From the sequence record PQ571307: a stretch of 64,000 bases of DNA; one strand, given 5' to 3'. A program made the position numbers and the translations under genes. The notes beneath the pieces were generated by a model. It searched no databases, was not told the DNA's origin, and worked only from the letters and a program-made list of their open reading frames with translations. The first letter of the stretch is position 1; the number at the start of each line of letters is the position of its first letter. This stretch comes from Shigella phage SF1-1. This document shows, piece by piece, positions 44,249 to 49,389 of this stretch.

Positions 44249-46273
44249 TTATCGTGTTACAACAACCATGTCCACGATATCACCCACACCAGGATACGTT
44301 AATTGCAAAATTGTTACTGCGTTAGCAGTAGTTGCTATTTCTGTATCATTTAGTGCTCCATAAGACGCATCTAGTGTAACCGTGTGTCCCGTTGTATCTT
44401 GAATCAAATAAATCATTGCTGAAAACGCTTTAGGTTTTGTAGAGCCAGTGACACCAGGCCATGCTCCAACTGTCAGAGCATCAGTTACTGTAACAACATA
44501 CATATTGGAAGTTCCAGAAGGAGTCCAAGATGCTCCAGAGTTGGCAGTAGTTGTTTCAAGTTCCATGAAACCTGCTGTAACTCTAGTTGGTGTTATAGCT
44601 TCCGTAGGATCTGATCCTGATATTTCGATCCAGTTTCCATCAGACCGACCATACGTCAAGCCGTCTTGAGGGGCTTCTGGTATACTAGGAAGAGTGCCTA
44701 TAAGCGTCCATGTAGAAGAATCTGTTTTCTTAAACACTGCTCCAGTGGTAGTATTGAAGGCGTAATCATTGATAACACCGTCTCCTGCGACTGGATTAGT
44801 TGTTGCTACAAACCACTGTGCGCCGTCCTTACCGTTGGTCCCATTAGTACCGTTGGTTCCGTTTGTTCCAGGATCACCCTTATCTCCTTTATCCCCTTTT
44901 TCACCTTTGTCGCCTTTAATACTTCCCATGTCAACAAAAGATGCGGAATTGGTGTCTTGATCGTAGGTATAGATGTAAAGATTACTAGTGTCTTCAGTTA
45001 AGTAGGCATCGCCATAGTTATTATAAACAGGGAGAGCTTCACTGTTCGGAACATGACCTTTAGCTGTAATTGATGTTCCTCCAAGACTGCCAACATTCAT
45101 CCATTCCGTAGCATCTTGAACCCAAACATATAAATCATTATTAATTTTATATGCATCACCCACTTCTCCGGTAGGAGGAAGTTCAGCTTCACTGTTCAGA
45201 ACCCCGATAATATCTAAGCCTGATCCTGTTGCACCCACTGGTCCTTGTGGACCTAGTTCACCTTGTGGACCTCGCTCTCCTTGATCACCCTTGTCTCCTT
45301 TTGGACCTTTAAGTGAGGCAATAAAATCTACTTCTGTCCCTTCATTACCAGCATCCAGCCAACTTTGATATGCAGATTTCCCTTCATCTCCATCTGTTCC
45401 ATCAAGACCGTCTTTACCTGCCTCACCTTGTGGACCTTGAGGACCAACAATATTACCCATGTTGACCCAAGCTGTCCCATTAGAGACATAAAGATTACCA
45501 TTGATAGAATAAGCTTGACTTACGTTTTCAGAGTTTGGTTGTGGTAAGTTACTTGTAGAAGGCAAATCCCCACGATAATCAAAACCGTTGGCGTTAACAC
45601 CAGGTGCTCCCTGTGGCCCTGTAGGACCAACATCACCTTTATCACCTTTTATAGAGGTAAGAAAATCATAAACAGATCCTGTATTACCATCTGCCAACCA
45701 TACCTCGTAAGCTGATTTACCTTCTGGTCCAAGAGAAGAAATAAGTTTCCAAACAGAACCATCCCAAGCGTAGATTACATCGCCTACGATATAACCATCC
45801 CCTGCAACGTTACCTGTGGATGGTAGTTCACTAGTGCTTGCTAATGATCCTTTAATATTAAGTTGAGCACCAGTATCCCCTTTCAAAGAGGCAAGCCATT
45901 GTGCTTCTGTTCCAACAAAACCATTATCAAGTGCGATCTGATAAGCCGATTTACCAGCTTCAGGTATTGTTTCCGACAGATCATCAATTTGTTGCTGCAT
46001 TGCCGTAAACTTGGCATTGATAATTGCTATATCATCAGCGGTCCCAACACTTTGCCATGCAAGGGAAGAAATACCACCTGTGGTGGCTGGCGTAGAGTTT
46101 GCTGGAACTACTTTAGGAAAAGTTCCTTTCCATTGGTAATAATTCCCTTCTGCTGCTAACAGCAAAACTTCACGGGAATTACGTAATGTAAAACCTGCCT
46201 CAAAGCTGCGACGTTTTCGATAAGTAGCTTCTACCAGATCGGCTATCGCACTATTAGGTCTTGTTAAATTCAT
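44249..46273 (-). CDS. tail fibre protein with collagen-like Gly-X-Y repeats
   Basis: 674 aa; GPTGPQGAPG, GPQGPQGEAGKDGLDGTDG, GPKGDKGDQGERGPQGELGPQGPVGATG, KGDKGEKGDKGDKGDPGTNGTNGTNGTNGKDG. Confidence 0.7.
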   Translation of the reverse strand: MNLTRPNSAIADLVEATYRKRRSFEAGFTLRNSREVLLLAAEGNYYQWKGTFPKVVPANSTPATTGGISSLAWQSVGTADDIAIINAKFTAMQQQIDDLSETIPEAGKSAYQIALDNGFVGTEAQWLASLKGDTGAQLNIKGSLASTSELPSTGNVAGDGYIVGDVIYAWDGSVWKLISSLGPEGKSAYEVWLADGNTGSVYDFLTSIKGDKGDVGPTGPQGAPGVNANGFDYRGDLPSTSNLPQPNSENVSQAYSINGNLYVSNGTAWVNMGNIVGPQGPQGEAGKDGLDGTDGDEGKSAYQSWLDAGNEGTEVDFIASLKGPKGDKGDQGERGPQGELGPQGPVGATGSGLDIIGVLNSEAELPPTGEVGDAYKINNDLYVWVQDATEWMNVGSLGGTSITAKGHVPNSEALPVYNNYGDAYLTEDTSNLYIYTYDQDTNSASFVDMGSIKGDKGEKGDKGDKGDPGTNGTNGTNGTNGKDGAQWFVATTNPVAGDGVINDYAFNTTTGAVFKKTDSSTWTLIGTLPSIPEAPQDGLTYGRSDGNWIEISGSDPTEAITPTRVTAGFMELETTTANSGASWTPSGTSNMYVVTVTDALTVGAWPGVTGSTKPKAFSAMIYLIQDTTGHTVTLDASYGALNDTEIATTANAVTILQLTYPGVGDIVDMVVVTR
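44829..44868 (-). repeat. 9-nt periodic DNA repeat encoding (GTN)n collagen-like triplets
   Basis: accgttggtcccattagtaccgttggttccgtttgttcc on the plus strand. Confidence 0.5.
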
Positions 46274-46309
46274 TTATCTCTCCTATCATTAGACCATTCT
46301 ATTGGAAGA

Positions 46310-49300: not shown

Positions 49301-49389
49301 ATAACATCATGGAGTTGGTTAGATGAGAAAATAACCAGGTCTACGCCCTGTTCGAGAGACGTTGCTGGATATGTTGGGAATGTTGCCAT
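46336..49389 (-). CDS. tailspike / tail fibre protein with right-handed beta-helix (pectin-lyase-like) region
   Basis: 1017 aa; repetitive N/G/T-rich beta-strand segments (NCTFKNGLYGILQQG, ITIRNVFAKRC, ISIENIHGD) typical of parallel beta-helix. Confidence 0.55.
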   Translation of the reverse strand: MATFPTYPATSLEQGVDLVIFSSNQLHDVINGSATESIETESGLIPTLRKALVDNFFFKSPLDWAQGTNETVFNQLRYFQNGVLSGYYYAPNATLVNPIPMQGTPVGDNNWVLWGLKTEQLATEVTPWVYSGATGYETVISPPYIFDSAIVTINGVIQVLGEAFRIEDSKIILSEPLGHDPATGLPNKLFAYIGKIVASADTDPNLENRLVSLETKTEELTESMDKVPLQTIARKYGLLDDEVAYATAGQSLTGIKALYDPVAQSSYTLPPNITGTLTSLSVSGVMTYSGGSVDLSALAVERGQFVHLPTSFGNNVTLTAKNQTIGRGAGRYRWAGSLPKSILASDTLETSGGLGPNAWVLTNTEGLLTPRGGTYNDLFDVVYLSEFANNTTTYTTPEAAFQAALLAAKASKSKILDAYGCDMTFTTSSFDIQGITLRGGVFRGQRDYRVQNATVEGTTFRNSRVMYWGGAVRMFDCLWDGAPRAGQVGSLVFQGNPISGTFEIDNCTFKNGLYGILQQGTGEPVTRGVFRNLTFMDMQGDAIELNVINKHYDDGCVIENIYLSNIDGTNAPIPLSNWGIGIGVAGKGPYGYGIPDDQYCKNITIRNVFAKRCRQIVHVEVGRNISIENIHGDPDQTVSVGTGLATGAVVMYGSKDFTIDGVYGEPKTDGSTLASNIRMIYLEWGTNAVLDGEGNPVVPAQGRPSNPCFNYSVRNIHTKTGRVFAGVSAGPGYENRVSFENIRCAALQLFGIASWLSMSNITCNIFDCVGQPESGPGTFYDGFFRREKSVLEMVNVNCYPDGKTMVTGRPQWSRCRYSDIHRVNCNVEANMYTNIAGGIGAIVGTTGKVYYLEPNPSRNIDGMHFPTGKEFDKGDMIVKADNTFFLVTTSGAYIPDIPAFGIRATQAGDTFLTQNLTPNGTATNASWLYHYPLSAGTRIRIPGAGVGGADLDTVITRAPYQDNDTWTNPVKIDIADPIVTPTSAGVRIKTIPNDSSNVSVGNTAVIRPTPVVDVPTT

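Follow-up and report, generated by a model that had tools for sequence, protein, structure and literature searches.

The multivalent adsorption apparatus of phage phi92 is said to have been described by Schwarzer et al. in 2012. Here it is compared with the corresponding locus of Shigella phage SF1-1 (PQ571307), from which a stretch of 64,000 nucleotides (nt) was analysed; this whole stretch is referred to as the window, and all positions are given in its numbering. The comparison centres on positions 44249-49389, flagged in an earlier note on this DNA, which contain exactly two open reading frames (ORFs), both on the minus strand: 44249-46273, encoding a collagen-like fibre of 674 amino acids (aa), and 46336-49389, encoding a beta-helix tailspike of 1017 aa. 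Phages of the phi92 type have been portrayed as a "nanosized Swiss army knife", with three co-expressed fibre sets visualized in cryo-electron microscopy (cryo-EM) and tied to a broad host range, and the Phapecoctavirus isolates AV125 and AV126 had the widest host range in one collection (PMC8594841, PMC10844046, PMC13450770). In the 2026 cryo-EM study of phi92, gp143 was identified as fibre I and gp147 as fibre III, fibre II being left without assignment (PMC13450770); the candidates named for it in the literature are gp15, gp140, gp150 and gp151. Simultaneous display of several glycan-specific proteins is the published explanation of why this group infects a broad range of hosts and, by analogy, would apply to the phage studied here.

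Identity of the locus and its relation to phi92 and phAPEC8

From ~41.5 kb to 64 kb, the minus strand of the window forms a single long virion-module operon, whose gene order and orthologues correspond to gp140-gp152 of phi92, each gene being near-identical or orthologous in BLASTP and tblastn matrices. The gene order is that of the phi92/phAPEC8 apparatus, with orthologues 60-87% identical to those of phi92 and 97-100% identical to those of phAPEC8 (gp086-gp098), and the same components are found: a colanidase-type spike, a collagen-like fibre, a short fibre with its chaperone, and, following a conserved N-terminal peptide, a variable slot. At the DNA level, the flagged 5.1 kb are 98-99% identical to ~60 deposited Phapecoctavirus genomes, and the near-identical relatives include phAPEC8, ESCO13, vB_Ec-G1 and Ro121c4YLVW, all of them Phapecoctavirus, Stephanstirmvirinae. 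The 1017-aa protein, orthologue of phi92 gp150, and the 674-aa protein, orthologue of phi92 gp151, are ~100% identical to phAPEC8 gp088 and gp087, respectively. It is thus highly probable that the flagged region makes up the distal half of the lateral tail-fibre/tailspike locus of a phAPEC8-like Phapecoctavirus myovirus, which would display several glycan-specific receptor-binding proteins at once. This multi-fibre locus is real but already published for near-identical phages, and what is new is the allele found in the slot, together with a testable hypothesis of assembly.

Three differences set the locus apart from that of phi92. The spike carries an added TD1-TD2 module (~residues 216-440), its helix having diverged to 33% identity, a protein with RCC1, immunoglobulin-like (Ig) and leucine-rich repeat (LRR) features stands in place of the 202-aa gp152, and the slot is occupied by an E. 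coli prophage-type tailspike module rather than by an endosialidase. Regarding the number of components, at least four or five separate fibre or spike proteins had been proposed for this module, a figure that falls short of the approximately eight candidate components counted here. Mass spectrometry of rV5 virions detected five fibre and three tail proteins together (PMC3606486), which, by analogy with a phage of a different subfamily, speaks against an outcome in which a single one of these proteins would be present in the virion; the O177 Phapecoctavirus paper titled "proteomics" contains no mass spectrometry.

Domain architecture of the flagged pair and a possible branched assembly

The 1017-aa tailspike is built of several consecutive modules. 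Residues 13-118 (nt 49036-49353) match residues 16-124 of the phiTE fibre (41% identity, E=3e-20, BLASTP), whose N-terminal region, as resolved by cryo-EM of phiTE (PDB 9CUY, chain g), contacts wedge 2A and the sheath initiator, and they are read as a putative baseplate anchor. A domain of the SP6-adaptor-like, or gp10-like, type follows at residues 115-207 (nt 48769-49047), with 37% identity to residues 171-260 of SP6 gp38 (E=4e-10). A profile of residues 1-212 retrieves SP6-adaptor-type domains from the PDB (E=1e-11 to 1e-4), and also finds the branching-type receptor-binding proteins or adaptors 9k4a, a K1-capsule depolymerase in which the domain is repeated, and 7y22; a "tail adaptor" is likewise among the homologues of residues 115-207. 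A helix (residues 206-235) then leads into the TD1-TD2 neck (residues 226-372, nt 48274-48714), which matches CBA120 TSP1/3/4 and G7C gp63.1 (E=1e-26 to 1e-30) as well as Shigella phage B2 gp48, and which phi92 gp150 lacks. The remainder consists of a right-handed beta-helix with a C-terminal domain (residues 426-1000, nt 46390-48114), matched by phi92 gp150, a colanidase of known crystal structure (6E0V; E=1.3e-79, phmmer). The AlphaFold2 model of the spike shows a mean predicted local distance difference test (pLDDT) value of 70.7, rising to 80-96 within the helix, and its top Foldseek match is again 6E0V (E=2.8e-39, template modelling (TM) score of 0.67 on the target, 30% identity), so that the beta-helix tailspike announced in the earlier note is recovered both by sequence and by fold. 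The protein is ~100% identical in aa sequence in phAPEC8, vB_Ec-G1, nieznany and ZCKP1, and 100% identical to cluster P0121, with 169 members.

The 674-aa protein, named TfpM2 in the literature, opens with a Tail_spike_N, TD2-like domain (residues 12-77, Pfam E=1.3e-19), its residues 17-89 matching the TD2 region of tailspikes. Three GKSAY...SLKG repeats lie at residues 107, 185 and 298, and four Gly-X-Y runs lie within residues 210-486. These runs, of 6, 8, 10 and 11 triplets, add up to 35 triplets, against 4.3 +/- 3.4 (maximum 19) in 2000 shuffled controls, and with the Pfam Collagen match (E=3.9e-12) they bear out the collagen-like fibre that had been placed at this position. The last collagen run is followed by a foldon-like motif resembling that of T4 fibritin, IPEAPQDGLTYGRSDGNWIEI (residues ~527-552, window 44618-44695); residues 503-552 give foldon-type matches in the PDB (1v1h and spike-foldon fusions), and phi92 gp151 shows a Fibritin_C match at the equivalent position. 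Both Gly-X-Y runs and a foldon-like trimerisation element are hence found in the same protein, as in a collagen-like trimeric fibre. Its C-terminal tip (residues 558-674) is 51% identical to that of the rV5-type fibre (E=3e-26), 58% to PVP-SE1 gp41, and 37% to the phiTE fibre. Identity to phi92 gp151 reaches 60% over the full length, and lies between 94 and 100% across the four relatives compared above. As judged from these matches, the protein would be a trimeric fibre, in which an interrupted collagen triple helix and a foldon end in a receptor-binding tip of the rV5/PVP-SE1/phiTE type.

A relationship between the two proteins emerges from the single long fibres of rV5, PVP-SE1 and phiTE. 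In these, one polypeptide of 581-793 aa bears the anchor of the 1017-aa spike at its N-terminus and the tip of the 674-aa fibre at its C-terminus (37-58% identity), and, unlike the proteins studied here, contains neither depolymerase helix, branch domain nor collagen repeats. The 1017-aa spike can be linked to the 674-aa fibre because such fibres fuse the end domains of both proteins; in addition, PHROG 4549 matches the two of them. No baseplate anchor is detectable in the 674-aa fibre or in the 625-aa spike encoded in the variable slot (hereafter, the slot spike), the former opening with its TD2-like domain at residue 12 and the latter with a 54-aa peptide.

These observations can be accommodated in an assembly in which residues 13-118 of the spike would seat on the baseplate wedge and the sheath initiator in the fashion of phiTE, the SP6-adaptor-type domain at residues 115-207 would serve as a branch point, and the 674-aa fibre, and possibly also the slot spike, would dock at that branch point, probably onto residues 115-207. 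An ancestral long fibre of the rV5 type would have been divided by a tailspike cassette, one part becoming an anchor-spike and the other a detachable tip-fibre. Roles beside those of the spike and the collagen fibre would fall to the short fibre (irreversible binding to the lipopolysaccharide (LPS) core), to the N4 gp64/65-like TIM-barrel protein, and to the spike in the swap-prone slot. The branched adsorption apparatus suspected in the earlier note is in this way suggested at the domain level. We advance only tentatively the fuller proposal, namely that the gp150-type spike is an anchor-and-branch protein carrying the gp151-type fibre and/or the slot spike, that Stephanstirmvirinae arose by the splitting of an rV5-type fibre by a cassette, and that fibre II of phi92 is thereby identified. 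Anchor, adaptor-like domain and collagen-fibre tip, linked in this manner, would nonetheless give fibre II a concrete and testable assignment.

Described branched systems share some of these elements. As in the adaptor of SP6, K1-5 and K1E, which carries two tailspikes, a domain homologous to residues 171-260 of SP6 gp38 and to the repeated domain of 9k4a is present in the spike (residues 115-207), and, as in the anchor-branch proteins of Klebsiella podoviruses (model of Latka et al. 2019), where second receptor-binding proteins possess a short conserved N-terminal peptide, such a peptide is found in the slot spike. On the contrary, the baseplate is here that of a myovirus, the anchor is unrelated to the N-terminus of T7 gp17, and docking is inferred. 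With CBA120 TSP1-4 of the Ackermannviridae and G7C gp63.1/gp66, the locus has in common the TD1-TD2 module of the 1017-aa spike, the TD2-like start of the 674-aa fibre and a free TD1 mini-gene, and, as in Ackermannviridae, several beta-helix depolymerases would occur on one virion. Unlike in CBA120, however, the genes do not form a tandem four-tailspike cluster, anchoring would proceed via the phiTE/rV5-type fibre N-terminus rather than via the TSP4 anchor, and XD1-3 (gp10-like) domains are not clearly detected (best match to TSP2 residues 19-72, E=0.056). An Ackermannviridae-type complex was rejected as a class for this locus, the XD domains not being convincingly present.

Several observations weigh against the proposed anchor-and-branch role or the functions assigned to the pair: (i) Klebsiella phage KP2025 has the anchor and the branch domain with no gp151-like neighbour, (ii) AlphaFold3 models of phi92 gp150 and gp151 misfit the low-resolution density of fibre II (PMC13450770), (iii) gp140 and gp151 are said to resemble the head spike of phage Pa223 (PMC13450770), (iv) the match of the profile to the XD2 region of CBA120 TSP2, cited above, is weak, (v) two genes of the fibre locus are frameshifted in this phage, and (vi) the beta-helix is only 33% identical to that of gp150 overall, so its substrate could differ. 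A rather doubtful alternative is that fibres and spikes each attach independently to the wedge, as a bouquet with no branch, the SP6-adaptor-like and TD domains being mere passengers of module exchange with no docking role. KP2025, with its anchor and 115-207-type domain in a genome devoid of a gp151-like gene, would be accommodated by such a bouquet, as would the phi92 maps that place fibres I and III directly on wedge protein gp145 (PMC13450770); moreover, TD1-TD2 directly precedes the beta-helix in all four Ackermannviridae tailspikes and may just travel with helix cassettes. Independent attachment is, however, difficult to reconcile with the lack of a detectable baseplate anchor in both the 674-aa fibre and the slot spike, with fibre II of phi92 being seen to join the base of fibre I (PMC13450770), and with an ancestral single fibre that holds anchor and tip together.

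Putative substrates, host range and the variable slot

Since the beta-helix of the 1017-aa trimeric spike is homologous to the gp150 colanidase of phi92, the polysaccharide that the spike would degrade is most likely colanic acid or another conserved exopolysaccharide of similar kind. That the colanidase label is only inherited from gp150, the true substrate being some other conserved glycan such as enterobacterial common antigen (ECA) or an LPS core-linked sugar, appears unlikely. Such an explanation would be in keeping with the modest overall identity of the helix, with the additional ~150-aa module of the spike, and with BASEL genetics, which indicate ECA as the common primary receptor of the group. 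Nonetheless, identity to gp150 rises to 40-52% in the core turns (residues 501-650), with long identical motifs (GDAIELNV, NWGIGIGVAG-GPYG), and the spike does not vary within the genus, which is what a target universal in E. coli would lead one to expect. Phapecoctaviruses also came from a screen that included a resistant mutant overproducing colanic acid: they were isolated in a second round against ST410 variants resistant to phage, among them an overproducer of this polysaccharide, and one isolate obtained in that way carries the gene for a protein that degrades colanic acid. Finally, that the 674-aa protein is a fibritin-like head, neck or whisker fibre rather than a receptor-binding fibre of the baseplate is improbable, because the foldon-like motif shared with T4 fibritin, the Fibritin_C match of gp151 and the label "potential capsid binding domain" given to the gp151 N-terminus in the phi92 record are outweighed by the C-terminal 100 aa, which share 37-58% identity with the tip of the rV5, PVP-SE1 and phiTE fibre, itself attached to the baseplate, by an N-terminal domain that is the TD2 domain of tailspikes, and by the location of the gene where the baseplate module ends, flanked by the spike gene and that of another tail protein.

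Considered as a collagen-like fibre and a colanidase-type spike, the flagged pair is invariant across the genus and cannot, for that reason, explain differences in host range among isolates; it would rather target something common to all hosts. The earlier note had connected several depolymerase specificities with a broad host range, a notion that fits the published phage group by orthology, but not as regards the two flagged genes, which do not differentiate host range. When phAPEC8, vB_Ec-G1, nieznany and ZCKP1 are compared, the variable elements are instead the slot spike, the RCC1/Ig/LRR protein over its C-terminal ~307 aa, and the tip of the short fibre with its chaperone. The window comes from a broad-host-range coliphage of the therapeutic type, and this map of invariant and swappable parts tells engineers at which points they can alter the host range, namely the slot's docking peptide of 54 aa, the LRR tip, and the tip of the short fibre along with its chaperone.

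The slot spike (625 aa, 54159..56036, minus strand) lies in a hypervariable position, between the gp142 and gp144 orthologues, which is that of the endosialidases gp143 of phi92 and gp095 of phAPEC8. The earlier claim of a second pectate-lyase-type tailspike is upheld by a match to Pfam Pect-lyase_RHGA_epim (PF12708, E=2.9e-11) and by a structure model of mean pLDDT 88.7 with tailspike folds, structure prediction thus retrieving beta-helix tailspikes for both the 1017-aa and the 625-aa proteins. The best folds found by Foldseek are the tailspikes phi297 gp61, LKA1 gp49, Sf6, HK620 and phi29 gp12, with a probability of 1.0 but TM-scores of only 0.3-0.47. Five acidic residues, E227, D236, E281, E313 and D358, do not vary among 41 homologues, the most distant of which share 35% identity.

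The N-terminal 54 aa of the slot spike are 90-98% identical in ~79 Stephanstirmvirinae records with unrelated C-termini, the modules behind this peptide in other genomes being endosialidases, glycosidases and esterase-type proteins; relative to phAPEC8, vB_Ec-G1, nieznany and ZCKP1, conservation covers only 9-22% of the length. From residue ~45-75 onward, on the contrary, the sequence shares 85-89% identity with prophage tailspikes from E. coli, Citrobacter and Enterobacter, whose N-termini are of PF09008 (P22-type head-binding) or PF18668 (Tail_spike_N). Among the deposited phages searched at the DNA level, no record covers at least 80% of the module or reaches over the middle of the gene, and the best phage protein match across the module is 43% (Cobetia phage); one 148-kb assembly from public sequencing reads holds a 625-aa version of the spike, with 90% identity. 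The GC content amounts to 0.41-0.49 at the slot spike and the adjacent mini-gene (window 53700-55950), compared with 0.35-0.40 in the flanks, and this island is compatible with its having been gained recently from the DNA of enterobacterial prophages. The module from residue ~45-75 would accordingly represent a horizontally acquired receptor-binding and enzymatic part of prophage origin, and the allele, absent from the deposited-phage collection searched, illustrates transfer of tailspikes between prophages and lytic phages.

Regarding its target, the capsule-dependent host range contemplated in the earlier note is the less favoured option: the slot spike is not an endosialidase, and O-antigen is a more likely target than capsule because the related prophage tailspikes bear P22-type head-binding domains, in line with the reasoning of Pas et al. 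2023 on prophages and their hosts. A search of complete E. coli genomes for the prophage copy returned one match only, at 77% DNA identity, from which no serogroup can be deduced. As a separate observation, the N-termini of the 625-aa spike (56036-55923) and of the 157-aa small fibre protein (61556-61420) share a motif, I..L......D.D...V.DQ, with 39% identity between residues 5-42 of the former and residues 9-46 of gp140, which hints at one docking site for both.

Other genes of the module, hairpins and frameshifts

The short tail fibre (353 aa, 50284..51345, minus strand) is the orthologue of gp147, fibre III by cryo-EM, with 76% identity over residues 1-267; it was assigned to a PHROG tail fibre group (E=5e-108), and matches to the short fibre of phiTE were obtained at its N- as well as its C-terminus. 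The "coiled-coil fibre-like protein" of the earlier note is hence indeed a fibre, with the more precise identity of a short tail fibre followed by its assembly chaperone. This chaperone (181 aa, 49738..50283, minus strand; Pfam Caudo_TAP E=3.2e-13) is the orthologue of gp148. The short-fibre tip is allelic within the genus, the protein of nieznany being 93% identical over 78%, and the chaperone appears to be swapped jointly with the tip because it is only 26% identical in nieznany. The wedge proteins gp145 and gp146 have orthologues of 495 and 209 aa, respectively.

The Calx-beta protein of 717 aa (56045..58198, minus strand; 77% identical to gp142) is a lateral fibre component with an N4 gp65/gp64-like TIM barrel (Pfam TIM-barrel_NCTSP E=1.2e-78, with NCTSP_N and Calx-beta matches; E=4.5e-30 to N4 Gp64, PDB 9LC0). 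Proteins of this type have been proposed as ECA-directed deacetylases (BASEL paper). The N-terminal and TIM-barrel domains are those of the N4 non-contractile sheath protein, which adds a further enzyme-like receptor-binding candidate, absent from the earlier note. Further along the module, the conserved tail protein of 958 aa (58207..61083, minus strand) is 83% identical to gp141 ("TfpL") and belongs to a PHROG tail protein group, Pfam and PDB sequence searches having given no match, and the small fibre protein of 157 aa (61083..61556, minus strand) is the orthologue of gp140 ("TfpS3"), also with 83% identity.

The last gene (41536..44207, minus strand) encodes a tail protein with an RCC1-like beta-propeller, Big_2 and a BspA-type LRR-like part (Pfam RCC1, WD40_RLD, Big_2). 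It corresponds to phAPEC8 gp086, "TfpM1", of 890-891 aa, and has only the Ig part in common with phi92 gp152. The "LRR fibre" formerly described at this position holds as an RCC1-like/Big_2 tail protein, but its LRR_5 match is weak and below the Pfam threshold (E=0.0068, 16.8 bits against a cut-off of 27.7), the repeats being discernible by eye only, and the gene is split. Its C-terminal ~307 aa (nt 41536-42458) give no DNA alignment to phAPEC8 and are 99% identical in vB_Ec-G1, a pattern by which this LRR-like end would be a second receptor-binding tip with different alleles in the genus. The split results from a 1-nt deletion at ~43912-43917, the coding strand reading G4 versus G5 in phAPEC8 and vB_Ec-G1, which leaves 104 + 786 aa and could be either a genuine inactivating mutation or a sequencing error.

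A second frameshift affects the TD1-only mini-gene (53713..54021, minus strand), located just downstream of the spike slot and corresponding to the N-terminal ~95 aa of CBA120 TSP1 and G7C gp63.1 (E=7e-49 to 4oj5 residues 1-95; also 4qnl and 9d84). Here the frame is broken by a +1 insertion, an extra C in the coding-strand C-run at ~53828-53832. In nieznany, BME3, ZCKP1 and vB_Ec-G1, the mini-gene keeps an uninterrupted ORF of 102 aa, and in phAPEC8 it is absent; it may be a relic of an earlier tailspike or a free adaptor. Relative to the closest relatives, four single-base insertions or deletions were found in ~35 kb, two of them intergenic, and the evidence for systematic homopolymer sequencing error as the source of both frameshifts is ambiguous.

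Hairpin terminators had been described as separating the genes of the module, which is correct for the ends of the 625-aa, 1017-aa, 674-aa and last genes, but not for the other junctions, where gaps of 0-10 nt contain no hairpin; hairpins are thus present at 3-4 of ~11 junctions, with canonical U-tails in just two. The 674-aa gene is followed by a canonical intrinsic terminator (44227..44246, minus strand), with an 8-bp GC-rich stem and then CUUUUUAU, and a bidirectional one lies at the convergent junction closing the virion module (41511..41534, z = -5.5), which the phAPEC8 annotation lists as a terminator. A GC-rich hairpin with a weak U/C tail (46310..46329, minus strand, z = -2.0) stands between the 1017-aa and 674-aa genes, and the hairpin after the 625-aa gene (54046-54067) has no U-tail on the coding strand. 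The promoter scan was uninformative (52 sites versus 54 expected), and no tRNA genes were found in the window.

Outside the virion module, the DNA polymerase gene (35750-38347, plus strand) comprises 2598 nt, as in phAPEC8, while vB_Ec-G1 and ZCKP1 annotate a DNA polymerase I of 3333 nt. The ~730 additional bases of these relatives (L005 8035-8766) sit at window position ~37494-37498 of the gene, and are possibly an intein or a mobile insertion.

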